DNA of 64,000 bases, taken from IMG/VR virus record IMGVR_UViG_3300037200_000088, positions 1-64,000 of that record, one strand, 5' to 3'. Positions within the stretch are counted from its first letter, which is position 1; each line of letters begins with the position of its first letter. Under the pieces are notes generated by a model. It was not told the DNA's origin, did no database searches, and worked only from the letters and a program-made list of their open reading frames with translations. Positions 743 through 35,634 of this stretch are shown in pieces. Source of the stretch: a virus. Both the position numbers and the translations under genes were made by a program.

Positions 743-999
743 GGACCGCCGACGAAATCCGCGCCGAGATAGAGCACTGGAAAATGCGTGGCGGCGGCCA
801 TCTCCTGCGCAAGCTACTGGAGCGCGGGTGTTTGCTTGTTCCGACGCATATCTCGTGGCGTCGCGCCGATCAGCTTGTCCGCATTGGGCTATGCACGCTG
901 TACCCATTTCATCAACGCTGGCAGGGCAGACTTGATTTGAGCGCCGCTGGGCGTGACGCACTCGCCCCGCCGCCAGTCCAAGGGGAGGGCGTGAAGTGA
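739..999 (+). CDS. Hypothetical phage protein
   Basis: ATGA coupling, AAGGAG SD. Confidence 0.7.
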   Translation: MRTADEIRAEIEHWKMRGGGHLLRKLLERGCLLVPTHISWRRADQLVRIGLCTLYPFHQRWQGRLDLSAAGRDALAPPPVQGEGVK

Positions 1000-1217
1000 T
1001 CGTTACCTTTAGCGAGCCGGCGCGGCTAAACGATCGCGGCCAATGCTGCGGTCGAAAGCCGCTCGATTACAAGACCGGCAACTTCGCGCCCGGCGGACCT
1101 CACAAGTTCTGCGATCGATGCTCGCGCGCGTTTGATCGGGACACTGGCGAGCAAATCCCTAACTGGGCGTATCAGGCGACCGAGGGCGGCTTTCTTCGCA
1201 GGAACCCGGGCGCATGA
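996..1217 (+). CDS. Small Cys-rich (putative Zn-binding) protein
   Basis: CCGRKP...FCDRC motifs; GTGA coupling. Confidence 0.7.
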   Translation: MIVTFSEPARLNDRGQCCGRKPLDYKTGNFAPGGPHKFCDRCSRAFDRDTGEQIPNWAYQATEGGFLRRNPGA

Positions 1218-1263
1218 CCGATCCCCGCCGCGTCTACAGCATCAATGAAGCCGCAGAGGCGAT

Positions 1264-1473
1264 ATGACCCTTCCCCCCGAGGCCCAAGCTTTGACGATCG
1301 CAGAGGCGGCGGCGGCGCTCCAGGTCAGCGAGCGAACGATCAAGCGATATCGCGCAACCGGCGTGCTGCCCGCGTCCAAGCGACTGGGCGTCGCGCGGAT
1401 TCCCGTCTCAGCTATTTCTGCACTGCTGGCCGGCGAAGAGGCACAACCGAAGCGCCATGCTGGCCGTCGATAA
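1264..1473 (+). CDS. xis: Excisionase-like HTH DNA-binding protein
   Basis: LTIAEAAAALQVSERTIKRY...G.LPA.K.LG..RIP is a HTH_17/Xis pattern; converges on integrase remnant. Confidence 0.8.
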   Translation: MTLPPEAQALTIAEAAAALQVSERTIKRYRATGVLPASKRLGVARIPVSAISALLAGEEAQPKRHAGRR

Positions 1474-1765
1474 AATTGGCCCAGGCCCTCATGAGCTCGC
1501 GGCGCCGGTCGAGCGCATCGCCGCGGCGATACGCGGCCTCGGTCTGGTCGCCGAGCGAATGGGCGAGCGCGGCCTCGGCGAGATCACGGGGGAAGGACGT
1601 GGCCTCCCAAACCCAATCGCGAAAAGAGGAGCGGAAGCCATGCGCGGTATAGACGAGCTTACGGCGCCGCATAAACATCGTCAGCGACATATCGCTGATC
1701 GGCGTGCGGGGCTTGCGCCCGGGAAAGACCAGCGGCGAGCGTGGGTGTCTGCCTGGACTATGATT
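1412..1765 (-). pseudogene. int: C-terminal remnant of a P4-like tyrosine integrase
   Basis: LVFPG.K...PISDMSL, HGFRSSFRDW, AALAH, AAYRR motifs; in-frame TGA at 1766-1768 upstream; about 300 N-terminal aa missing. Confidence 0.85.
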
Positions 1766-1796
1766 TCAAGCCGCTTGAGCTAAAGGGGTGAGGCCC

Positions 1797-2090
1797 ATGA
1801 AAGCCGGGGAGATCGTGACCGATGACATGGTCGAGAAGGCGTCAAATGCGTGGATGATCGCGCCTCTTAGCTCCGACCGATTCCGCGCCGCGCTCGCCGC
1901 CGTCGCGCCCCTCTTCGCCGAGCAGTTCGCGAAGGTTGCGGAACTCGACGTCGATTGGGTGAACTTCGGCAAGCGCGACATCCCTCAGTGGGACGGCGGC
2001 CCAGACGCGGTGCGAGATTACCGATTAGGGATTGTCGCCGGCCGCGCGATTGCCACCGCCATCCGCACCGCAGGAGCCTCCAATGACTGA
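1797..2090 (+). CDS. Hypothetical phage protein
   Basis: GAGG SD, phage-like VTDDMVEKA start. Confidence 0.65.
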   Translation: MKAGEIVTDDMVEKASNAWMIAPLSSDRFRAALAAVAPLFAEQFAKVAELDVDWVNFGKRDIPQWDGGPDAVRDYRLGIVAGRAIATAIRTAGASND

Positions 2091-24438: not shown

Positions 24439-25941
24439 TCAAAGCCCCCCTGTCGCCCCGGCGCTGTCCGCGTCCGCGTCGGGGAAGGATTGGATCGCAA
24501 CGATGTCATCCGCCGTCGGCTCGATTTCCGCCGCCATCGCGGCGATCAGCGCTGCGATTTGCGGTCCGGCCAGCGTGGCGGCGACGGCGAGTTCGTTCGG
24601 ATCCAGGCTGACGCCCATCGAGCCGGCGAGCGCCGCGAGCTGTAGCGCGGGCAGCGCGGCCTGCAACGTCGCAATCGCTGAGTTGGCGTTGGTCATCAGC
24701 GCGTTGATCTGCGCCGTCATGGCGGTGAAAGCCGCCATAGCCACGGCTTGGCTAGTTTCCGTAGAGAGCACGCCGGCCGTCAACCCCGTGACCTGGGCTT
24801 CTATCGCCGCGAGCGTCGAGGCGCTTTGCAGCGGTGCGAGTACGGCTGAGAGCGAAACCGGCGTCGGCGGATCGATTCCGAAATATTGGGTTATGTTCTG
24901 CGCCTGCGCCACGACGTCCGTGAGGCCGTACGCGCCTCCGGTTGGCGTCGTAGCCCCGGAAAGGGCCGATACGCCCGTCTCCAGCGCCCCTACGGCCGCC
25001 GAGAGGCCTCCCGAGCCGGTTAGCGCCGAGACGAGGCCAGCGCCGGCCCCGCCGAGCGTCGAGGTCAGTGAGGAGGCGGCCGAGGTAATCGCCGAGGTCA
25101 GGGAAGACGTCGCGGCTGCGGTCGGGCTCGAAAGCAGCGAGCTTATACCGACCGACATCACCGTCGACATAATCGAGGAGATCTGGCTCGATCCGGACAT
25201 TGGCGGCGGTATCGGCTTGGTCGCGACCAGTTTTCGGTTGGCGAAGGTCATTCCCGGCGAAGGCAGCGGGCTTTGCTGAATCGTGTTGATCAAAACCTTG
25301 GCGGCGTTTTTGATGATGTTGCCGCTGGGAAGATGGATGGTCCCCGCCGCACCGCTGCCGCCAGTCGCGCCGCCGCTGCTAACCCCGCCGCCGCCGCTGC
25401 CGACGATGACCAGGTGCTTGACCGTCGAGGAGTGCGTGATCCCATTCGAGGGGTGGACATCGCTGACGTGGTTGCCGTTGTCGGAGCGGTTTTGCTGCGA
25501 GGTGGTCGACGGCGGCGGATTGAGCTTGCGCGGGTCGGATCGGCCGCCTGGCAACCAGCGAGAGTCGGCGAGATGGTGCGTCCTGTTGTCGATCGGGTCC
25601 TGAATACCGCCTTTTTGGTGCCAGAGATCCTGGGCCCGGCTGAGAAACTGGACGATCCCCTCGTCGCCCTTTTTTACCGGGTGGGTGTGCGATACGCCGC
25701 CCCCGTTGGGAAAGTGCACGGGGCTGGTATCGAGCGGGGGGAACGCGATCATTTTGACCGTGCCGTCCAGCATGGTGATCGCGAGATTGACGGCGGAGCT
25801 CGCGGTCGCGATATGCCCATTGCTATCCTGCGAGATGATCGCTGGCAGTGAGGTCCAGATACCCTTCAGCGCGCCGTTGACAGCCTCCTCAACCGCGTCC
25901 ATTTCCTGCGCGGCGTTCATCTTGATGCGCAGGACGTCCAT
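24439..25941 (-). CDS. Baseplate central spike (Gp138/gp45-like) with long C-terminal extension
   Basis: WTSLPAII, PVHFP.GGG...HPVKKGDEG...F, RTHHLAD N-terminal domain. Confidence 0.8.
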   Translation of the reverse strand: MDVLRIKMNAAQEMDAVEEAVNGALKGIWTSLPAIISQDSNGHIATASSAVNLAITMLDGTVKMIAFPPLDTSPVHFPNGGGVSHTHPVKKGDEGIVQFLSRAQDLWHQKGGIQDPIDNRTHHLADSRWLPGGRSDPRKLNPPPSTTSQQNRSDNGNHVSDVHPSNGITHSSTVKHLVIVGSGGGGVSSGGATGGSGAAGTIHLPSGNIIKNAAKVLINTIQQSPLPSPGMTFANRKLVATKPIPPPMSGSSQISSIMSTVMSVGISSLLSSPTAAATSSLTSAITSAASSLTSTLGGAGAGLVSALTGSGGLSAAVGALETGVSALSGATTPTGGAYGLTDVVAQAQNITQYFGIDPPTPVSLSAVLAPLQSASTLAAIEAQVTGLTAGVLSTETSQAVAMAAFTAMTAQINALMTNANSAIATLQAALPALQLAALAGSMGVSLDPNELAVAATLAGPQIAALIAAMAAEIEPTADDIVAIQSFPDADADSAGATGGL

Positions 25942-26915
25942 CAGGTTCCACCCAATTGGGCGGAAGAGAAGGTTTCGGCGGGCGTCGGCGCCTGGCCGAG
26001 CACGTTCATCGCGAGGTCCTGATACCAGGGCGTCCCGCGCGTGTCGGCGTCGACGTCGATCCGATAAATCCTGTAAATTCCGTCGCCGGCAACCGCCGCC
26101 ATGTTGATCGCATTGGGCAAATAGTTGGGGTCAATCGATCCGTCCGAGAGAAGCTGCGGAAGCATGCCTTGGACCAGCGACTCATCAATATGCACCAAGC
26201 TATGGAACTTTAGTTGTGGATTGATCAACGACCTTGCGTACAGGCCGCCGGTTTCGAGCGTCGGCATGCCGATCAGGCCAGTCAGCGTGTTCAATTCGGT
26301 CGCGCCGCCGGGGATCGCATCGTTGGGCGTGACCAGGTGCACCAGCGCATTTTGGATCGAAGCCGTCGCGCCCTTGGATTTGGCGACGTCGTTCATCAAT
26401 TTCCACGCCATGCCGAACAGCGCGATCGAGCGCGGGTAGACCGGCGTCGAGAGCTGAACCGACGGTCCAACAAAGCCGAGGCCAACGCCGAACTGTTTCA
26501 AGGCGGCGATCGACGTGTTGACGATATCGTTCGGCGTCGAGCCGGGCGGAAGCGTCTTGTTGACTTGCGCGTAGGTCTGCGCCTGCCCGCCGTCCGAGGC
26601 TAGGATCGTCGTCATCGTGTCGGTCGGGTTCTCGCGGCCGTAAATCGCCTTGCGCAGATCGCCTTGAAAGATCAGCCCCATGTTCCCGACGTAACCGGCG
26701 CTGATCGAAACGTTGCTGCCCTCCGCCTGCGGGGCACAAAGCGCCTTCGCAAGCCCGGGGTTCTGGTTGGTCAACAGGATCGTCGCCGTATTCGGCTGGT
26801 TGAGCGTCGATTGCTTGATCTTGAAACGGACGCGGATGCTGCCTTCGTTGGCGTCATAGGTTTTGCCGATATAGGCGAAGGTGACCGCGCATTGGCGGAT
26901 GTAGTTGGCACTCAT
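25941..26915 (-). CDS. Baseplate hub protein
   Basis: PNTATI, ISAGY...GLIFQG, TGLIGMP..., DTRGTPWY. Confidence 0.85.
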   Translation of the reverse strand: MSANYIRQCAVTFAYIGKTYDANEGSIRVRFKIKQSTLNQPNTATILLTNQNPGLAKALCAPQAEGSNVSISAGYVGNMGLIFQGDLRKAIYGRENPTDTMTTILASDGGQAQTYAQVNKTLPPGSTPNDIVNTSIAALKQFGVGLGFVGPSVQLSTPVYPRSIALFGMAWKLMNDVAKSKGATASIQNALVHLVTPNDAIPGGATELNTLTGLIGMPTLETGGLYARSLINPQLKFHSLVHIDESLVQGMLPQLLSDGSIDPNYLPNAINMAAVAGDGIYRIYRIDVDADTRGTPWYQDLAMNVLGQAPTPAETFSSAQLGGT

Positions 26916-27223
26916 GCCGCTATGTACAAATGAGCGGAACTTCCTAGATTGAAGAAACGCGGCACGGCGTCGGGATCTGCATCGGTAGCGCAGTACATTT
27001 GGCAACCGAAGTTCAAATACTCATATTGAGCCAGCAAGTCTGCCCCGGTAACCAACGGAATGCCTTGCACCAGAGGATTGTCGTCGCTGTCGGCGATATC
27101 CAACTCCCAGCAATCATTTGGCGTGAAGAGATAGATCAGCCTCAAGTTATAACTCTGCCCATTGGGGAAAACGACCGAAAGCGTTTGAGGCTGCGGCGTC
27201 AGCGGGACTTCGTAGACCGTCAT
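26912..27223 (-). CDS. Baseplate plug-type small protein
   Basis: EVPLTP.PQ, W.LDIAD....LVQGIPLVTGADLLAQY.YL. Confidence 0.85.
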   Translation of the reverse strand: MTVYEVPLTPQPQTLSVVFPNGQSYNLRLIYLFTPNDCWELDIADSDDNPLVQGIPLVTGADLLAQYEYLNFGCQMYCATDADPDAVPRFFNLGSSAHLYIAA

Positions 27224-27909
27224 GGCGAATAGGCCGTGGGCGCCCCAGCGCCGGCTGGGACGAGGCTTTGCGTGCCGGCCCCGGTGACGTCGTTCGGAAA
27301 CGTCATCGCGCCGAAAGCGTCGGGGGTGACCGAGCCGGCCGGAATCGTCGCGACGCCATTGCCGACTTGCGGCGTCGGAACGCCGCTCGGGTTGTTGGTA
27401 ATCGATCCGATTTGGCTTGACCCGTTGGTGTTGGCGGGCGTCGTCGCGCTCATCGTCGTGTTGGTGATGACGATATGCTGCGCGGTCGCGACGCACATCA
27501 GCGTATATTCGGAATCCGGGTCGGTCTTGACCAGGAGCGTGCGCAGCAACATCGAGGAATATTGGCGTTTTCCAGTCGAGATGTTGAACGGCGTTTTCGA
27601 GGCTTGCAGCGCGAGAAATGCCGCATAAACCGCTTGGACGTAGCCGGAGGTTTGCGCGTTCGAGTCCGACCAGCCGCAACGGATTTCAACCGTGTAGGGC
27701 TGAAGGAAGGCGTGGTCGGTGACTGGCGTCCCGTATTCGACGGGATGCTGGGTGATCGCCAATTCGTCGTTGTGTGTCTCCTCGACGACGACGTGGGGAT
27801 AGAGGTCGCCGATCGAGCGGACGCCAGGTTGAATCAACGCGTAATTTGCCGAGGTGTCGCCGATCAGCGGGCCGAATGTCGACGCAGCCGAAACGATGTT
27901 GTTTGCCAT
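27220..27909 (-). CDS. Dit-like baseplate/tube initiator protein
   Basis: EETHNDELAITQHPVEYG..VTDHA. Confidence 0.85.
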   Translation of the reverse strand: MANNIVSAASTFGPLIGDTSANYALIQPGVRSIGDLYPHVVVEETHNDELAITQHPVEYGTPVTDHAFLQPYTVEIRCGWSDSNAQTSGYVQAVYAAFLALQASKTPFNISTGKRQYSSMLLRTLLVKTDPDSEYTLMCVATAQHIVITNTTMSATTPANTNGSSQIGSITNNPSGVPTPQVGNGVATIPAGSVTPDAFGAMTFPNDVTGAGTQSLVPAGAGAPTAYSP

Positions 27910-29771
27910 CACGGACTCGCCGCTTGCAGGGCTTGGCTCAAATCATCGTTGACGCCCTTTTGCGCGCCGTGAACAAGCCGCGCGACGGCGACTGGGTCGC
28001 CGGTTCCGTCGACGTGGATCGTAGTTTGCGTCGGCGCGTTGATATGCGTGTCGCCGCTGGCCCCGCCCAAGATCGGCGGGCTCGCCATTGCGCCCGAAAT
28101 GAGCGGTCCACCAAACGCCGGGATTTGCATAGGCGGTGTGGGCGCCGCGTTCGGCCGACTCAGCGATCCTGCAAGAGCGCCGTAATCCGGGTGAACGTCC
28201 GTTCCCGGCGGGAGCGCCTGAAAGTTGGCCCCGGCGCGAGCGGCTTCGCTTCTCAGCGTCGAGTTTACCTCGGCGGACGCGCCCGGATAGTTGCCCAGGG
28301 CGCTTGAGAGCGACCCGACGCCAAGGACTGTGATCCGTTTCGGATCGGCGCCCTTGTCGATTGCGGCCTGAATTTGCTGGCGGATCGTGGCCGCGGCGTG
28401 CGGCTCGTTGGATGCACCGCTCGAGATGACGACGTCTTTGCCGGCGAGGCTTTGCCGATAGGCGGAGATTCGCTTGGCGACCCAGTCGGGCGTCTTCCCG
28501 ACCACCGCGTTGTCGCTATCGGCGTGAAGCGCGCCGGCCAAGCCCGCGCCGATGCTATCGCCGAAGATGACCGTGCCGCCGCCGAGCGGCGCGCCGCTCC
28601 TGGCCGGCGGGGCGTTGGCGTCCGGCGAGGCGCCGGAAGGCACACGCACGGCTGGCGTAGCGGGCTCTCCCCCGCCAGCGCCGACCAGACCCTTAGCCCA
28701 ATTCCAGGCTTTCGACGCACCGCCTTTCCAGTCCCAGGCCGGCGCATCTTTCTGGTCATTTAGGCCCTTGACTATATCGGCGGCGGGCGGGTTTACCGCA
28801 CGGTCGGCCTGATTGAGCATGCTGCCCGGCGTGTTGACCGAGCCATTCATCCAGACCAGCCAACCGACCAGGCTGTGAAACCGCATCGCGATATCGGCGA
28901 TCGAGTCCGCAAGTCCTTTGACCAGCATGCGGAAGTCGCCCAATTCGTCTGGCTGGCCCAGCACGGCGCCAAAATCCTTGACCCATGCCGCTGTCATATC
29001 AGCGAGCGCTTTGGTTACCTCGCCGATCGCCTCGCCGATCTGAGCGCCGTTGGCGGTAATGAAGTCGTCGAAAGCCTGCATAGGCGCGGTGAAATCACGC
29101 TCTAGCGCCGAGCCGATCATGTCGGCGATGGCGCTGAGCTTGTTCGAGACGTCGCGCCAGATTGTCTGAAAGTTCTTACCGTCGATCGCCGCCTGCTCGA
29201 TATTGAAACCAAGCGACTTGCGATAGGCCTCGAAACCGGCCAGATCGGGCAAGACCTCGTCCAAGTGCCGCTTCATCAGCAGGATCGGCTGCGCGGAAAT
29301 GCCGACGACGGAGGCGAGGTTTTCGACCTGCTGGACGCTCAAGTTTCGCAGGTTCTCCAGCATCTCCTGCTGAATTTCGAGCTTTCCGGTAGTCGCGTCG
29401 AGGCCGAAGCCAAGCTTATTGAGTACCGAAATGTTGTTGCGATTTTCGCGAAGCTTTTGCGCAGCCGCCTCGAGTAGGCTGCTCGCCTCAGCCGCATTGC
29501 CCCCGTATTTCTTGATCAGCAGCGGAAAATCGTGGGCTAGCCCCGCCGAGCTATTGGCGCGCTGCGCGGCGAAGTAGAGATCGTCGAATTTAGTCGCCGC
29601 CTCCTTGACCGCCTCGCCGACCTTTTTGGCGATTTCAACCAACAGATCGCCGAGCAGTTGAGCCTTGAGCGTCGCGCTCGTAATCGCGGCCTCAAACTGA
29701 TGCTGGTCGCGCTTGCCCCTCTCGGTATCCCAGCCGAGCGCAATCAGGAATTCGCGCAATGTTTCGGCCAT
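27909..29771 (-). CDS. Tape-measure-like protein 2 with SGNH/GDSL hydrolase domain
   Basis: ETLREFLIALGW N-terminus; IFGDSIG, AVVG, SSGASN, DVHP blocks. Confidence 0.8.
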   Translation of the reverse strand: MAETLREFLIALGWDTERGKRDQHQFEAAITSATLKAQLLGDLLVEIAKKVGEAVKEAATKFDDLYFAAQRANSSAGLAHDFPLLIKKYGGNAAEASSLLEAAAQKLRENRNNISVLNKLGFGLDATTGKLEIQQEMLENLRNLSVQQVENLASVVGISAQPILLMKRHLDEVLPDLAGFEAYRKSLGFNIEQAAIDGKNFQTIWRDVSNKLSAIADMIGSALERDFTAPMQAFDDFITANGAQIGEAIGEVTKALADMTAAWVKDFGAVLGQPDELGDFRMLVKGLADSIADIAMRFHSLVGWLVWMNGSVNTPGSMLNQADRAVNPPAADIVKGLNDQKDAPAWDWKGGASKAWNWAKGLVGAGGGEPATPAVRVPSGASPDANAPPARSGAPLGGGTVIFGDSIGAGLAGALHADSDNAVVGKTPDWVAKRISAYRQSLAGKDVVISSGASNEPHAAATIRQQIQAAIDKGADPKRITVLGVGSLSSALGNYPGASAEVNSTLRSEAARAGANFQALPPGTDVHPDYGALAGSLSRPNAAPTPPMQIPAFGGPLISGAMASPPILGGASGDTHINAPTQTTIHVDGTGDPVAVARLVHGAQKGVNDDLSQALQAASP

Positions 29772-31780
29772 CAGAACGTCGCGCCCTGAAGGTTTCGCGT
29801 CAGGTCCGCAGGCTGTTGCGTAATGCCAGCCGCGACCATGTGCGGGCTAGGGTTCGCCTCGCTACTGAGCCCGTCGATCATGATCTTCGTGTCCATCGGC
29901 GCGTGGATCGTCGTGCCAGCCGTTCCGGCCGCGCCGCCTAGCGTAGGTGTCTGGCCGCCCATCAGGCTACCCGTTAGGGCACCTTGCGGCTCCCAATTAC
30001 CCATCCCTTTCCAAGGATTTGGCAGATTGCTCACCGCGGGAGCGCGTGCGGGTTCACCTGCGGGCGCGTGCTGTGCTGGCTCATCGAGCGCGCCGAGCCG
30101 CCGCCCGATCGGCCCGAAATACGCAGTGCCGCTTGTACCCCAGGCGTCGGTACCGGCGGCGCCGGTATTGAGATATCGATTTGCACCGCCTACGCCCTGA
30201 TTGTGCGCATAACCCAACATTTGTAGTTGTTGCGGTTTCGACATCGCCGCGAATTTTGGATTTCGCATCAATTGGTTGTAGTGATCGAGCGTGTAGTTTT
30301 CGAAAAACCGCTCTTGCATCGCTGGATCGGCGAGAAACTCAGCGGTGCTAGGCCTCGGGACGCCGAGGCGCGCGGCGGTTTCGGTAATTTCCGCTGGGCC
30401 CATCTGGTAGCGGCCAGCGAACCGTCCGCCAGCGCCGCCCATGCGGTCGTAACGCTTACCCTCAATATCGGTCAGCCCCTCTTTGAAGGCCCCGTATTGT
30501 TCGGCACTAAAGCCGGTTCCGGTCGTCATCGAGGTCGCGTCATACGGGACGCCAGTGGGGCCCGTCGCCGCCGCGGCGGGGGCTCCCCGCAGCGGGGACG
30601 CACTCGCACCACCCCCAGGCGCGGCTTCGGCACCGCCTCCAGCCGCCGGAGGGCCGCCACCAGCCCATCCAGGGGCGTGCCTGCGATAGAAATTCTTTGC
30701 CGCGCCCCACACACCGGTCGGCGCCGAGCCATCAGCGTTCGCCTGACCGCCCGCGCCTAGCGCGCCTTCGATCGCCGCACCGCCGCGGTTGTAACTGTCC
30801 AGGTCAGATTTGTTGCCGGATAGGCGATTGAGGATATCGGCGAACTTGTCGCCGTAGCTCAACAGCAATTGGATATCTTTGATGAAGCCGTGGAAGTTGT
30901 CGGCCAATTCCTTGATCGACACCGCGAAATCGCGCATGCCATCGCGAAACGAATCGAACGACTGCGGATCGTTCATGATCTTCTGGAAGTCGCCGACCCA
31001 AGCCGTCGTCATCGCCAGCAGCGCCTTGCTGATGATGTCAATGTCGGCGCCGATTCCCTTGCTGTTCGCCGTAAGGAACTGGTCGAACGCGTTGAGCGGA
31101 CCGATCAGCGCCTTTGTCAACCCGCTCCCGATATCATCGCTGATCGCGGTGATCTTGTTGTGCGTATCGCGCCAGATCGTCGCCAGCTTATTCGCGTCGA
31201 TTTCGGCTTGCGGCAGATCGAAGCCAAGCGTCTTGCGATAAGCGGCGAGTTTGTCCATCTGCTCGAGGATGTCGTCAGCGTTCCGGCGCAGCGCCATCGC
31301 GACGTTGTCGGACATGCCGACCTGGTGTGCGCCCTGGATCAGCAGCGCCGTGCTCATGTGAGACAGGTTTTTCAGATACTTCTGCTGCAACTCCATTTGG
31401 CCGGTGATCGGGTTCAACCCGAAGCCCATCCGGTTGATGTCTTGCACCGCGATCGAGCCGGCGCGCAGCTTGGCCGCCATGCTCTCGATCGAGCCGGCCG
31501 CCTCGCCCGCGCTGACGCCAGCCTGCGCCATCACTTTGACGAAATCGCTTACCGTCGCCGCAGCTGTATTCGTCCGCTGCGCCTGGAAGTAGAGGCGGTC
31601 GAAGTTGGTCGCGACGTTCGAAACGCTATCGAGAACCTTGCGGGCGAGCTCCTCAAGGCCGTCGCCGAGCAGCCTCGCCTTGAGGGTGGCGCTTTCGATC
31701 GCCGCCTCGAACTGTTTCTGGCCGGTTTGATTGGACGCCCAGCCCAGCGAGATCAGAAACTCCTTGACGGTATCGGTCAT
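29771..31780 (-). CDS. Tape-measure protein 1 with lysozyme-like domain
   Basis: DTVKEFLISLGW N-terminus; DIEG, AGRYQMG, FLADPAMQE, YAHNQG motifs; follows chaperones. Confidence 0.85.
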   Translation of the reverse strand: MTDTVKEFLISLGWASNQTGQKQFEAAIESATLKARLLGDGLEELARKVLDSVSNVATNFDRLYFQAQRTNTAAATVSDFVKVMAQAGVSAGEAAGSIESMAAKLRAGSIAVQDINRMGFGLNPITGQMELQQKYLKNLSHMSTALLIQGAHQVGMSDNVAMALRRNADDILEQMDKLAAYRKTLGFDLPQAEIDANKLATIWRDTHNKITAISDDIGSGLTKALIGPLNAFDQFLTANSKGIGADIDIISKALLAMTTAWVGDFQKIMNDPQSFDSFRDGMRDFAVSIKELADNFHGFIKDIQLLLSYGDKFADILNRLSGNKSDLDSYNRGGAAIEGALGAGGQANADGSAPTGVWGAAKNFYRRHAPGWAGGGPPAAGGGAEAAPGGGASASPLRGAPAAAATGPTGVPYDATSMTTGTGFSAEQYGAFKEGLTDIEGKRYDRMGGAGGRFAGRYQMGPAEITETAARLGVPRPSTAEFLADPAMQERFFENYTLDHYNQLMRNPKFAAMSKPQQLQMLGYAHNQGVGGANRYLNTGAAGTDAWGTSGTAYFGPIGRRLGALDEPAQHAPAGEPARAPAVSNLPNPWKGMGNWEPQGALTGSLMGGQTPTLGGAAGTAGTTIHAPMDTKIMIDGLSSEANPSPHMVAAGITQQPADLTRNLQGATF

Positions 31781-31947
31781 TTCCTTTCCGCCGCCTTGCG
31801 CGCCCGCGCGTCATTCTCCGCCTTGACGGCGAGCGCGTCATTCATGATCGCGATGTCGAGCAGGTCGAGCGTGCCGTCTTTCAGGCTTTCGTATTTGCAC
31901 CAGTTCGCCGCGACCGGCGCCAACAGCCAGTCTAGGTTATCCGGCAT
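31777..31947 (-). CDS. Tail assembly chaperone C-terminal (gpT-like) segment
   Basis: MPDNLDWLLAPV...YESLKDGTLDLLDIAIMNDAL; in -1 frame of upstream chaperone. Confidence 0.85.
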   Translation of the reverse strand: MPDNLDWLLAPVAANWCKYESLKDGTLDLLDIAIMNDALAVKAENDARARKAAERK

Positions 31948-31949
31948 CC

Positions 31950-32450
31950 TTACTGGATCGAATGTGAGGCGGCCGGATTCGCGCCTGTCAAACTTGACAG
32001 GCCGGCGGGCAAAAAACCACCGAAGGTCTCCTGGAAGACGCCTAGCGCAATGCGCAGCATGACGGTGAAATCGTTGTTGATGTCATCGAACATCGAGCGC
32101 CCGGCGTCTGCCGACCAGACCTTTGCCCAACCGATTTCGCCGTCTCGCTTGCGTTCAACCGTCGCCAGGCAAGTGCCGATAATGAACCTGCGGTCCCCGG
32201 CCGACATTTTAGCCAGCTCGCGCGCGACCGGCGTTGCGATATGCCCCAACTGCTCCAGGGAGGTCTCGGCAAGATTGCCAACCCCCTGCTGGCGCATTTG
32301 CACCAAGAGCGGCGCGAGTTCTCCGAACCCGGAGGCGAGCAACGGCGAGATTTTAGCGATGATCTCGATTTGGTCGAACGCGTTGATCCGCGACGTCTGG
32401 CGATAGACACAGTCGCCTACCCTGAATTCCATTCGCGTCACCCTTTCCAA
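31950..32450 (-). CDS. Tail assembly chaperone (gpG-like)
   Basis: INAFDQ..I..KISPLL; position between tube and tape measure; start may be ATG 32432. Confidence 0.85.
   Translation of the reverse strand: MERVTRMEFRVGDCVYRQTSRINAFDQIEIIAKISPLLASGFGELAPLLVQMRQQGVGNLAETSLEQLGHIATPVARELAKMSAGDRRFIIGTCLATVERKRDGEIGWAKVWSADAGRSMFDDINNDFTVMLRIALGVFQETFGGFLPAGLSSLTGANPAASHSIQ
31983..32016 (-). other. Programmed -1 frameshift signal
   Basis: T TTT TTG (32016-32010) followed 7 nt later by GCCTGTCA-AGTT-TGACAGGC hairpin; -1 frame is open into MPDNLDW. Confidence 0.8.
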
Positions 32451-32759: not shown

Positions 32760-33542
32760 TTAGATCGACGCCATCAGGAGGCCCGCTGCTAAGCCCTTTG
32801 GTCTGGCACTCCTGTTCTGAGCAATTTTGCTCATAAGGGCGCAAGATTCAGGAGATCGCTTTTTGCCACGGTTTTTCGCAGCAGCCTTGGCGCGTGCCTC
32901 AGGGGTGTGAATAAGCGCGACGCACTTGGCTATTGTTTGAGCGGAGGGCGGCGGACGGTTGCGCGCTGCGACACTTCGTCTATCGCGCGTCTCATCGCTT
33001 TGATTGAGAACGGCTTGTCTGATCAGCTCGCAGGTTTCTTTGGAATGCGCGTACCCGCTCTTAGCGCGCCTTCCGGCTACAGCCGCCGCGATATGCTCAG
33101 GCGTTCGGTTGAGAGCGGCGACCCGTTTTCTTTCCCGCGTTTCGGGCGAGTCGATACGTCCCTTTAGGGCCGCGCTTCGCTTTGTCTTTGTGAGGGGCGC
33201 CGTCCGTCTCGATATTTCCCCAATGAGCCGCTTTCCAGCCTCGGTGTGTTTATGCCCAGACGCGCCCTCGCCACCGTCCGTCAGATTGAGCAGCGGGCCA
33301 CCATGCCGATTGCGACCGATTGAAGCAATCAATGCCACTTCTAGTTCGTAGGCGGCAGCCTCGGTTAAGTTTTCGCTGACCTTCGCGATGGGAAGCTCGC
33401 CATATTTCCTAATGAGGTTGCGAAGATGCTTGTTGTGATCGCGGCGAGGCGTATAGCATCGCCGTCCGACGCCCTTTCCAACGTAGCATGGCGCGCCATT
33501 TGGGCGGAAAATCACATACACGTAGAACCGAGAATCGCTCAT
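32760..33542 (-). CDS. GIY-YIG homing endonuclease with NUMOD3-like repeats
   Basis: FYVYV...CYVGKG, NLTDGGEG, HTEAGK / SPETRE / HSKETC repeats. Confidence 0.88.
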   Translation of the reverse strand: MSDSRFYVYVIFRPNGAPCYVGKGVGRRCYTPRRDHNKHLRNLIRKYGELPIAKVSENLTEAAAYELEVALIASIGRNRHGGPLLNLTDGGEGASGHKHTEAGKRLIGEISRRTAPLTKTKRSAALKGRIDSPETRERKRVAALNRTPEHIAAAVAGRRAKSGYAHSKETCELIRQAVLNQSDETRDRRSVAARNRPPPSAQTIAKCVALIHTPEARAKAAAKNRGKKRSPESCALMSKIAQNRSARPKGLAAGLLMASI

Positions 33543-33570: not shown

Positions 33571-34062
33571 CTATTGGGCGATCGGGAGTCCTGCTGAAAG
33601 TCCGGTGTTCATTAATCCGTTCCCCAATACTTCCGACGTCGCGATGAAGTCGAAGGCCCAGACATTGAGGCCGCCCTCGGTAGAGTAGCCGATGTCTGAT
33701 TGTTTGATGAAAGCCCCGGCGGTCGCAACAATCGCGTCGCCACTGACCGGATTTGCGATCGTCAGGATATTCTGCCCCCAGTATGCCGCCGATTTTGATT
33801 GATAGGCGTAAAGCTGGTTCATCAGCGCATTGCCCGTCGCCGTCTTCAAGAGCGAGATCGTGATGCGGCTCGCCGTCGTCGCCTTCAGCGAGTGCATGCC
33901 GTCGCCATTCGCGCCGATCGTCATCGTGTTTTTGTCAGAGGACATCGCAATGCGAATGCTCTCATCCGAGACGCCAGACGAGGCTATATCGAAGTTTCCG
34001 CCAGGGCCTGAGATAGATGCCTGAACGTCAAAGAACGAATAGACGCCACTTTGGACGGCCAT
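33571..34062 (-). CDS. Tail tube protein (DUF3277-like)
   Basis: YSFFDVQASISGPGG, DKNTMTIGANGDGMHSL. Confidence 0.88.
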   Translation of the reverse strand: MAVQSGVYSFFDVQASISGPGGNFDIASSGVSDESIRIAMSSDKNTMTIGANGDGMHSLKATTASRITISLLKTATGNALMNQLYAYQSKSAAYWGQNILTIANPVSGDAIVATAGAFIKQSDIGYSTEGGLNVWAFDFIATSEVLGNGLMNTGLSAGLPIAQ

Positions 34063-34116: not shown

Positions 34117-35634
34117 TCACGGGTTGATGTTCAAAAGTACGTCAGCTATTTGCACGGCACCTGCCAACTTCGCGGCCACCTGAAATGGAACGCTGATACG
34201 TTCTTCTCGCAAGTTCTCGGCCTGCGTAGCAACAGGAGGATAATATATGTAGTACCCCTTTGTAAGTATCTGCCCGTTCTGCAATTGGCCGAAGCCATCT
34301 GCGTTCCATTGTCCCGGCGCCATCAGCCCATTGTTGATACCGGCCTCGCAGCCTGCCGCAATCGCGGTCGCGATCTGGTTAGACCCGGCATCGGTCTGCG
34401 GAATCTTCGTGCCGGTCGTGTAGAGCAAGTTGAACACGTCGGTTTGGATTTGGTTCTGCAGCCAATCGACGCCCTGGACCTCATCGAACCAGTAGCCGTT
34501 GGTCATCTGGCCGTTCCAAATCATCACCGCGCCGTTGGACACTGTGATGTTGACGTTGCCGCCCTTGCCGATCAGCGTCGCGAACTGCGTCTCGTTGAGT
34601 TGTTCGGCCTGGAGGCCCGGCGCCTGCTTGTAGGCCAGGGTCAGCGTCGTATCGTTGCCCTCGAAATCGACGGTGAAGCCGCGCCCGAACATCGTCGCGA
34701 CCGCGTAGGGGTTGAACGCCGAATACATCCAGAACATTTTGCGGTTGTTGAGCGATTGTAGCACGCTCCCCAGGTCGGCCGTTTGCGTCGGGTCCATCAC
34801 ATTTGTGTTTTGGATCGTCGTGCCGAACATGCGCTGGCGCTGGCCGGCGAGGATATAGGCGCTGATCGCGATGTAGTCGGCCTGGACGAGCTTGACGGTC
34901 GTGGCGTCCATCAACCCGTACCACTGCGAGGAGGTCGCCACGCAGGCCTGTACGCCGCTCAGCGCGCTCTCGGCGTTCTGCCCCGGGATCAGTGGCGAGG
35001 CGCCGGAGGCGGACGTAAGGCCGAGCAAGGTCGAAATGTCGGTGGTGCCGCCGATCGCCGATGACGTTGAGCCGAACGAAACCGAGGAAGCCGGGCCGGT
35101 CGTGTTGCTGGTGATGACGAATTGGGTTTCGGCGGAATTCCAGACGCAGGTAACGCCGGAGGTGAAAGCAGCGACCAGCGCGGTTTGAATGATCGACGCC
35201 ACGCCGTTCATGTTCAACGCGGCCGAGAAGTTCAGCGGTTGGATATTGGCCGCGACGCCGTTGACCGAAATGCGAAATGATCCATCCGTGATCGCGGTGA
35301 AGTTCGAGAGCAGCGCCTGAAGCGGGTTGAGCGTCGCGGCGCCCAGCATGCCGGCGGTTGCCGTGCTGGCCCAGCGGCCGATATAGACGATCGCGGGCTG
35401 CGGCGACTGTTCAAAAAACAACTCCGCCGCCAGATATTCTGGAGTGTTCGAGGCGAAGTCAACCGCGACCTCCTCAAAGCCGGAATACTGGCGGATGCGT
35501 TCATTGGTGTTGATGACGTTGGAGTCTCCCAAGATCAACAATGTACCAAAGTTCTCGAACGGGACTGCCGTCGGCGTGAACGAGACGGCTACGTTGACGA
35601 AGTCCGAGACGTCGACCGCAATCACGTTTGCCAT
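34117..35634 (-). CDS. Tail sheath protein (DUF3383-like)
   Basis: PEYLAA..FF.QSPQP, FDEVQG.DWLQN.IQ, KIPQTDAG, KLAGAV. Confidence 0.92.
   Translation of the reverse strand: MANVIAVDVSDFVNVAVSFTPTAVPFENFGTLLILGDSNVINTNERIRQYSGFEEVAVDFASNTPEYLAAELFFEQSPQPAIVYIGRWASTATAGMLGAATLNPLQALLSNFTAITDGSFRISVNGVAANIQPLNFSAALNMNGVASIIQTALVAAFTSGVTCVWNSAETQFVITSNTTGPASSVSFGSTSSAIGGTTDISTLLGLTSASGASPLIPGQNAESALSGVQACVATSSQWYGLMDATTVKLVQADYIAISAYILAGQRQRMFGTTIQNTNVMDPTQTADLGSVLQSLNNRKMFWMYSAFNPYAVATMFGRGFTVDFEGNDTTLTLAYKQAPGLQAEQLNETQFATLIGKGGNVNITVSNGAVMIWNGQMTNGYWFDEVQGVDWLQNQIQTDVFNLLYTTGTKIPQTDAGSNQIATAIAAGCEAGINNGLMAPGQWNADGFGQLQNGQILTKGYYIYYPPVATQAENLREERISVPFQVAAKLAGAVQIADVLLNINP

Follow-up and report, generated by a model that had tools for sequence, protein, structure and literature searches.

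Tape-measure proteins (TMPs) are generally treated as homotrimers encoded by a single gene. At the locus described here, a contractile-tailed soil phage encodes two paralogous TMPs side by side, each with a different enzyme-like domain. The two genes, referred to as TMP-A and TMP-B (A and B hereafter), lie on the minus strand of a 64,000-nucleotide stretch of viral DNA that corresponds to positions 1 to 64,000 of the IMG/VR record IMGVR_UViG_3300037200_000088 and is called the window below; the parent record has 75,113 bp with direct terminal repeats and is rated complete. The analysis establishes that A and B are paralogs, where their genes lie, which folds their domains have, that the catalytic positions are conserved, that the pair is old and stable, and in which fusions and co-occurrences these domains are found. 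The reading that we favour, with a probability of roughly 55%, is that A and B are two old TMP paralogs with divided cargo, which are both loaded into the tail and whose esterase and glycan-cutting domains are ejected together.

Two paralogous tape-measure genes

The two genes and the modules that they have in common are as follows.

29771..31780, minus strand: TMP-A, an open reading frame (ORF) of 669 amino acids (aa); tape-measure paralog with a lytic-transglycosylase-like domain
27909..29771, minus strand: TMP-B, an ORF of 620 aa; tape-measure paralog with an SGNH-fold domain
29769..29773, minus strand: TGATG stop/start overlap from A to B, read from the sequence
30866..31780, minus strand: N-terminal helical tape module of A, residues 1-305 (43% identity to B; hhalign 100%)
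28857..29771, minus strand: N-terminal helical tape module of B, residues 1-305 (BLASTP and hhalign against A)
29774..29947, minus strand: C-terminal module of A, residues 612-669, weakly homologous to that of B (BLASTP 18/40, E 0.002)
27912..28079, minus strand: C-terminal module of B, residues 565-620, the canonical C-terminus of this TMP family (B-clade profile)

Both ORFs are exactly as claimed in an earlier note on this DNA, which had described two TGATG-coupled genes of 669 and 620 aa. Their junction reads TTC TGATG GCC, where the stop codon of A and the start codon of B have one base in common, and this coupling suggests that A and B are synthesized jointly or co-expressed. An A-B fusion produced by read-through or frameshifting was also considered and was rejected, as TTC TGATG contains no slippery site. 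The two proteins follow the same plan, in which a Gly/Ala/Pro-rich linker joins a helical N-module of about 305 residues to a single globular domain, and a Pro/Gly-rich linker joins this domain to a C-module of about 55 residues. The homology that had been claimed over about 300 N-terminal residues is extensive: BLASTP aligns residues 1-302 with 131 identities in 302 positions (43%), two gaps and an E-value of 2e-79, and hhalign of the profiles built from the A and B ortholog sets gives a probability of 100% and an E-value of 4e-73 over 331 columns. The homology claimed for the C-termini is real but weak, with 18 identities in 40 positions (E 0.002) in a second BLASTP segment and E-values of 5e-4 to 9e-4 for A-clade members searched with a profile of the B-clade C-terminus, among whose matches A of the window is absent. 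All the quoted motifs are present, namely DIEG (438-441), GRYQMG (456-461) and YAHNQG (524-529) in A and GDSIG (404-408), SSGASNE (450-456) and TDVHP (524-528) in B, as is the quoted motif pair, TTIHAPMDTKIMIDG in A versus THINAPTQTTIHVDG in B.

The assignment of A and B as tape-measure paralogs is supported by matches to PHROG TMP families and by the position of both genes between those of the tail assembly chaperone and the baseplate hub. Residues 1-293 of A match phrog_2276 at 4.8e-14 and phrog_12506 at 5e-13, B matches the same families at 9.4e-13 and 8.9e-11, respectively, and the two proteins are the sole tape-measure candidates within the tail module. Both fail to reach an E-value of 0.1 with Pfam TMP models, while a relative in the same family, L004, passes Pfam PhageMin_Tail with 34.2 bits against a cut-off of 33.2. 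As whole proteins, A and B have no significant match in Pfam, NCBIfam or the PDB sequences, and neither has a transmembrane-like segment (maximum hydropathy 1.16).

The C-terminal modules are unequal. The B-clade C-terminus profile finds the C-termini of P0015 (1.7e-14), of the TMPs of the related loci L022 and L003, and of the second gene of a further tandem pair, L024. B and the second genes of the L024 and L030 pairs retain the canonical C-terminus of the family, and the first genes of these pairs, like A, have a weak match or none to this profile. Given this asymmetry, the two copies may dock differently.

The cargo of A is a lytic-transglycosylase-like domain

30101..30553, minus strand: cargo domain of A, lytic-transglycosylase- or goose-lysozyme-like, about residues 410-560 (AF2, Foldseek and conservation)
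30458-30469, minus strand: DIEG motif of A with the proposed catalytic Glu440

The insert of A had been described as lysozyme-like, and it was modelled with AF2 (residues 400-565, 29 homologs; pLDDT 91.8) and compared with the PDB. Lytic transglycosylases (phiKZ gp144, Slt, MltE, Slt70 and Cj0843) occupy each of the top 20 Foldseek rows, followed by other lysozyme-superfamily folds that include goose-type lysozymes, leech destabilase and the phi6 lysin, with probabilities of 0.96-1.0, TM values of 0.44-0.56 and E-values of 8e-3 to 0.1. In an alignment of 29 A-type domains, the columns of Glu440, Tyr and Gln are invariant, and GRYQMG and YAHNQG are invariant or nearly so. This motif set, with a Glu ending the first long helix followed by motifs of the G-x-x-Q and Y-x-x-N-x-G types, fits the pattern of family-1 transglycosylases and goose-type lysozymes. 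Residues 410-555 also match phrog_5867, annotated as endolysin, at 1.9e-23, and A has no match to Pfam SLT at an E-value of 0.1. The model thus supports a place for the A insert in the lysozyme superfamily, for which lytic transglycosylase is the closer description.

The transglycosylase cassette has a third-position GC of 0.675, compared with 0.836 in the N-module of A, and shares 66-73% identity with its counterparts in TMPs that are otherwise distant (P0017, P0018 and that of a Lichenibacterium minor prophage). These two features of its sequence would fit cassette exchange. In a scan of genome contigs, the closest relatives of the cargo were found in Alphaproteobacteria, where eleven prophages have a single TMP with an A-type transglycosylase.

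The cargo of B is a minimal SGNH domain

28167..28583, minus strand: cargo domain of B, minimal SGNH-hydrolase fold, about residues 397-535, with Ser406 (GDS), Gly425, Asn455 (GASN), Asp525 and His527 (TDVHP)

For the insert of B, the SGNH fold proposed from its motifs is confirmed by structure search. The AF2 model (residues 385-540, 26 homologs) has a pLDDT of 88.1 and the three-layer alpha/beta/alpha arrangement of SGNH enzymes, and all its Foldseek rows are SGNH enzymes except for a few de novo design scaffolds. With VIA-align, the C-terminal domain of OatA (6wn9) is aligned over 129 residues with a Z of 14.3 and a root-mean-square deviation (rmsd) of 2.3, and over 40 further SGNH enzymes, PatB among them, follow at Z of 12.4-14; the roughly 50 SGNH entries have rmsd values of 2.2-3.0 over 129-141 residues. 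The block I, II and III columns of Ser406, Gly425 and Asn455 are invariant or at least 90% conserved in sets of 26 and 73 sequences, and across the 73 SGNH-family sequences conservation reaches at least 90% in each of the G, D, S, G, N and H columns. A search of the PDB sequences with the SGNH profile returned only a GDSL protein at an E-value of 0.024 amid chance matches to GTPases. The cargo of B represents a separate, uncurated and minimal (about 135 aa) SGNH family.

The SGNH family travels with glycan-cleaving domains

A full HMMER scan of 1.84 billion representatives with the SGNH family yielded 84 clusters at E <= 1e-3, and most of the matches are embedded in proteins of 500-1500 aa. 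In 73 SGNH-family proteins, Pfam detects SLT (20), Phage_lysozyme2 (12) and Transglycosylas (3), together with single occurrences of GH108, Phage_lysozyme, Hydrolase_2, SLT_2, SLT_3 and the T4 gp5 OB domain; these tallies may overlap, and some of the 73 members are fragments. The complete list of 12 Pfam families found in these 73 proteins contains no amidase or peptidase family, so that the wall-enzyme partners detected by Pfam are glycan-cleaving domains only. With custom profiles, an A-type transglycosylase and an SGNH domain were found in one chain in P0035-P0040, P0044 and P0073. In PHROG, the proteins of the family are tallied as lytic tail proteins, lytic tail fibre proteins, TMPs and internal virion proteins with an endolysin domain. 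Because of this pattern of fusion in cis, the SGNH domain is tied to glycan cutting rather than to peptide cleavage. The earlier note had regarded the cargo of A and B as complementary, and the fusions (the single TMP of L003, described below, as well as P0035-P0040 and P0044) and the exclusively glycan-cleaving wall-enzyme partners seen by Pfam lend this idea independent support.

The only match among GenBank phages is a Mu-like prophage of Helicobacter pametensis (BK070131.1, L070:3441-6119), in which an 892-aa protein in the TMP position, annotated as hypothetical, has an SGNH domain followed by a T4-type lysozyme (Phage_lysozyme). H. pylori, of the same genus, O-acetylates its wall (PMC3517862), but this is one anecdotal case. 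The SGNH-bearing cluster members are all metagenomic, and one IMG member is named 'lysophospholipase L1-like esterase'.

Some family members were seen in other settings. P0059, P0109 and P0119 are stand-alone proteins of 150-230 aa with signal-peptide-like hydrophobic N-termini, and the family may also exist, to judge from these, as secreted cellular or phage proteins. One member each has a T4SS and a TrbL/VirB6 Pfam domain, which suggests that the same SGNH domain might be used in conjugation machinery beside VirB1-like transglycosylases.

History of the duplication

Relatives of both genes were found, and each copy has its own orthologs. Full-length B orthologs are 41-51% identical to B and all keep the SGNH motifs; the domain is retained in 7 of the 7 full-length members of the B clade. 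A-clade orthologs keep the N- and C-modules and have the cargo swapped among lysozyme-type cassettes. The cargo of P0011 combines the transglycosylase domain found in A with an additional Cys/His domain; in P0012, Phage_lysozyme2 precedes an M15-like motif undetected by Pfam; and P0013 and P0014 have other lysozyme-type stretches with weak M15 matches. The additional domain of P0011 (L019:1839-4217) follows the transglycosylase and is some 130 aa long. Its Cys and His residues look conserved, by eye it resembles CHAP/NlpC domains, and no profile match was obtained for it.

The pair of the window recurs in L019, an IMG/VR contig on which a chaperone gene is followed by an A-type gene of 792 aa, with an N-module 64% identical to that of A, and then by a B-type N-terminus (60%) that runs off the contig. 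The contigs of P0013 and P0008 are of equal size (27117), as are those of P0014 and P0004 (9417), which suggests, circumstantially, two more pairs. In a maximum-likelihood tree of the N-modules, the A clade (5 rows) and the B clade (9 rows) are sisters (100/99) to the exclusion of the single-TMP relatives L003, L021 and L022. Both clades branch in the same order, in which L019 comes off first and the window second. Sister clades and congruent branching point to one duplication after the split of the L003 lineage, with the two copies co-inherited since. The longest DNA word common to A and B is 13 nt; as no longer word is shared, the duplication is old and no homogenisation has taken place, and recent gene conversion between them was rejected on the same count.

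The single TMP of L003 (IMGVR_UViG_3300038412_000035; P0041) has 742 aa and contains both Phage_lysozyme2 (405-509) and an SGNH domain (about 535-670). Its N-terminus is 40% identical to A and to B, and its SGNH domain is 39% identical to that of B over 136 aa by tblastn and 35% identical over a longer BLASTP alignment. The simplest history, as far as these sequences can tell, would be an ancestor with two enzymes in a single chain, whose cargo was partitioned after the duplication.

The earlier note had left open that tandem TMP pairs might be routine in this phage group, and a search of the relatives indicates that they are not: among the family's 42 other loci, 3 have pairs, and in every pair the cargo differs between the two members. 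In L024 (7983-12166), a protein of 766 aa with lysozyme2 and SGNH domains is followed by one of 628 aa with an M15-like stretch; in L030 (8001-11918), a protein of 673 aa with Peptidase_M15_4 is followed by one of 628 aa with an endolysin-like stretch. Each of these two pairs clusters with itself in the tree, and the duplications in L024 and L030 are therefore independent. Tandem pairs are thus uncommon and recurrent, always with different cargo in each copy. Other searches added little: a single-protein scan of viral contigs found nothing, a scan of metagenome contigs returned distant relatives only, and two scans of genome contigs gave nothing and single-TMP prophages only, respectively.

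Proposed mechanism and alternatives

O-acetylation of N-acetylmuramic acid (MurNAc) at C6 blocks lytic transglycosylases and lysozymes, and the acetyl group is removed by the SGNH esterase Ape1 (PMC6627197, PMC5077204). We propose that A and B are both loaded into the tail tube, each keeping the N-module and a version of the C-module, and that they would be loaded together, most simply as mixed trimers. Since the duplication, the A clade would have held the glycan cutter, to which some orthologs appear to add a peptidase-like domain, and the B clade the SGNH domain only. Contraction of the tail would expel A and B into the periplasm, where B would most likely strip O-acetyl groups from MurNAc C6 locally, and A would then cleave the glycan strands and open a local path for the tube and the DNA. 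In this scheme, we infer incorporation of both proteins into virions, the mixed trimers and the substrate of the esterase. The placement of the SGNH domain in the periplasm follows from its location inside an ejected tape. A stronger version, in which a mixed A/B trimer occupies the tail lumen, the SGNH domain is the first peptidoglycan de-O-acetylase shown in virus entry and represents an unannotated family that accompanies glycan cutters in the ejected proteins of many phages (TMPs, lytic tail proteins and internal virion proteins), and tape duplication is a recurrent route to adding enzymes without altering the ruler, is put forward tentatively, and we consider it possible rather than probable.

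Several observations weigh against the proposed action of B and the joint loading of A and B. In the B clade, the acidic residue, which is Asp (TDVHP) or, in two orthologs, Glu (GEVHP), stands at H-2 and not at H-3 as in the canonical DxxH; most SGNH-family members have the canonical D-x-V-H, and His527 is conserved. The domain does not pass Pfam Lipase_GDSL_2 (PF13472), with 14.7 bits against a gathering threshold of 32.9 and an E-value of 0.043; just 3 of the 73 family members reach 1e-3 with this model, and the domain has no match in NCBIfam. The best folds by Z are O-acetyltransferase domains (OatA-C and PatB), which are tied with generic esterases, while Ape1 is neither matched in sequence nor found among the top 50 structural rows, an absence that does not exclude kinship. 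As the acetyltransferases tie with generic esterases and Ape1 falls outside the top 50, the fold does not indicate the substrate of B. A and B also differ in length by 49 residues, and the C-module of A has diverged from the family consensus, so their engagement with the hub could differ.

Some of these observations would also suit an SGNH domain that does not act on peptidoglycan O-acetyl groups and is instead a lipase or phospholipase for the membrane, a surface-polysaccharide esterase or a non-catalytic module. The displaced Asp of the B clade and the tie of the fold with lipases, the thioesterase TesA, platelet-activating factor (PAF) acetylhydrolase and sialate and xylan acetylesterases lean that way, as do the lysophospholipase-like name of the IMG member and the SGNH domain of the 80alpha protein Tal, likewise without established activity (PMC7048315). 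The repeated and specific fusion to glycan-strand cleavers, and not to amidases, peptidases or membrane-active modules, however speaks against such a role; a domain in an ejected tape would reach the periplasm and not the cell surface, and a dead domain would be at odds with Ser, Gly, Asn and His columns that are at least 90% conserved. Overall, we regard a substrate or role other than wall O-acetyl as unlikely. Far more remote is a recent or decaying duplicate pair with no separate function, which we regard as highly improbable: beyond the tandem arrangement nothing speaks for it, and it is contradicted by the tree, by the longest shared DNA word of 13 nt, by orthologs of both clades at 41-66% identity with their domains retained, and by the intact frames of both genes.

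It is also conceivable that A and B serve as alternative tapes, each tail containing a homotrimer of one or the other, such that every burst would yield two virion types and hedge over hosts or growth states with different walls. With the full N-module in both proteins, each could in principle go through chaperoning and length measurement without the other, and the unequal lengths of 669 and 620 aa and the diverged C-terminus of A are in keeping with this. A virion with B only, however, would carry an esterase without a glycan cutter, SGNH domains of the family mostly share a chain with a glycan-cleaving domain, the sister lineage has both enzymes in each chain, and the TGATG coupling suggests joint synthesis. 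Because both modules are kept in both proteins, the genes are translationally coupled and each chain of the sister lineage has both enzymes, co-packaging is likelier than two virion types, to which we attach a low probability. A comparably low one is given to a tail in which one paralog is the ruler and the other a TMP-derived, ejected cargo protein lodged in the tube or baseplate with no part in setting tail length, or in which the two lie end to end and tail length reflects their summed lengths. The C-terminal asymmetry, with the second gene canonical and the first weak or without a match, recurs in three independent duplications and is the point in favour of a single ruler; yet the N-modules of A and B have only two gap positions over 302 residues despite 57% divergence, as would be expected for a common register, and both clades have been conserved over a long divergence. 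Joint loading of two paralogs with divided cargo remains the reading that we prefer.

Gene neighbourhood

The other genes of the tail module, which is on the minus strand, include the following.

34117-35634, minus strand: sheath (phrog_205)
33571-34062, minus strand: tube
32760-33542, minus strand: homing endonuclease, GIY-YIG-type, between the tube and chaperone genes (phrog_314, 4.6e-21)
31950..32450, minus strand: tail assembly chaperone, upstream of A (phrog_1688 at 6.2e-19)
31777..31949, minus strand: probable frameshift extension of the chaperone (gpG/gpGT-like), open in another frame and ending with ATGA at the start of A
27220..27912, minus strand: tail gene after B, 230 aa (phrog_817 at 7.9e-40), TGATG-coupled to B
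25941-27005, minus strand: baseplate hub
24439-25941, minus strand: spike-position protein, 500 aa

The order on the minus strand is sheath, tube, homing endonuclease, chaperone, A, B, phrog_817 protein, hub, spike and wedge proteins, and a second TGATG joins B to the phrog_817 gene. The layout of the chaperone extension is the same in L019, where an ORF at 961..1842 terminates at the start of the A-type gene. The spike-position protein has no PHROG match at an E-value of 1e-3, and a blastn search with the window gave no match among GenBank phages. In L003, there is no ORF of at least 120 aa between the tube-sized and the chaperone-sized ORFs, the place taken by the homing endonuclease in the window.

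Comparison with known systems

TMPs with wall-hydrolase motifs are established, as in mycobacteriophage TM4 (Piuri and Hatfull 2006, as cited in PMC3556154), and gp95 of phiCbK is a TMP with a CHAP domain (PMC3556154). A and B resemble these proteins in being predicted rulers of the tail lumen that are ejected with a peptidoglycan-degrading domain and encoded after a frameshifting chaperone gene, and differ from them in that the window has two paralogous rulers with one enzyme each, one of which has the SGNH fold. The single TMP of L003 belongs to the same TMP family and has the same tail gene order, SGNH family and C-terminal module; it combines Phage_lysozyme2 and SGNH on one gene, whereas the window splits the cargo and A has a different lysozyme-superfamily cassette.

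A virion-borne SGNH-fold domain at the tail penetration apparatus is also found in Staphylococcus phage 80alpha, whose tail-tip protein Tal (gp59) has a C-terminal SGNH/GDSL domain for which no activity has been shown (PMC7048315). Tal, however, is the baseplate hub of a Gram-positive siphophage and not a TMP, and its domain is about 240 aa compared with about 135 aa. The action proposed for B is that of Ape1 of Neisseria and Campylobacter, an SGNH esterase that frees the C6 hydroxyl of MurNAc for lytic transglycosylases (PMC5077204, PMC6627197), but the two have no detectable sequence relationship, and the domain in the phage is a minimal one that forms part of a predicted virion protein. OatA-C and PatB (6wn9, 5ufy and 8tlb) give the best structural scores, with Z of 14.3, 12.9 and 12.5, and OatA-C is likewise a small SGNH domain (155 aa) that is active in O-acetyl chemistry at MurNAc. 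Both OatA and PatB attach acetyl groups that a membrane partner delivers, whereas an ejected phage protein would have no such donor, and their Z scores are tied with those of many esterases, so no specific kinship is shown.

Two potential tape measures have been reported in Staphylococcus jumbo phages (bioRxiv 10.1101/2020.12.14.422802), which are an unrelated lineage of giant phages with no SGNH partner reported and with the second gene annotated as a tail lysin. The phages phiCbK, Shady and SuMu were considered as further precedents for two tape measures and were rejected, as the literature matches concern chaperones or other matters. In the literature searched, we found no SGNH domain in a TMP, no systematic pairing of SGNH domains with glycan cleavers and no virion de-O-acetylase. 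New here are the old duplication, the recurrence of the pair in L019, the dual-cargo TMP of L003, the independent duplications in L024 and L030 and the partner pattern of the SGNH family.

Implications

Given a stably inherited pair of TMPs with divided cargo, of a kind with at least three origins within a single family, one may ask whether there are mixed tapes and how a ruler would tolerate them. The SGNH domain of B defines an uncurated family of 84 representative clusters at E <= 1e-3, and the proteins that host it match virion-associated lysin families. If the domain does remove O-acetyl groups, phages would be countering, just as they enter the cell, a wall modification that is widespread. 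This would have consequences for host range and for designing lytic enzymes to be used against bacteria whose walls are O-acetylated.

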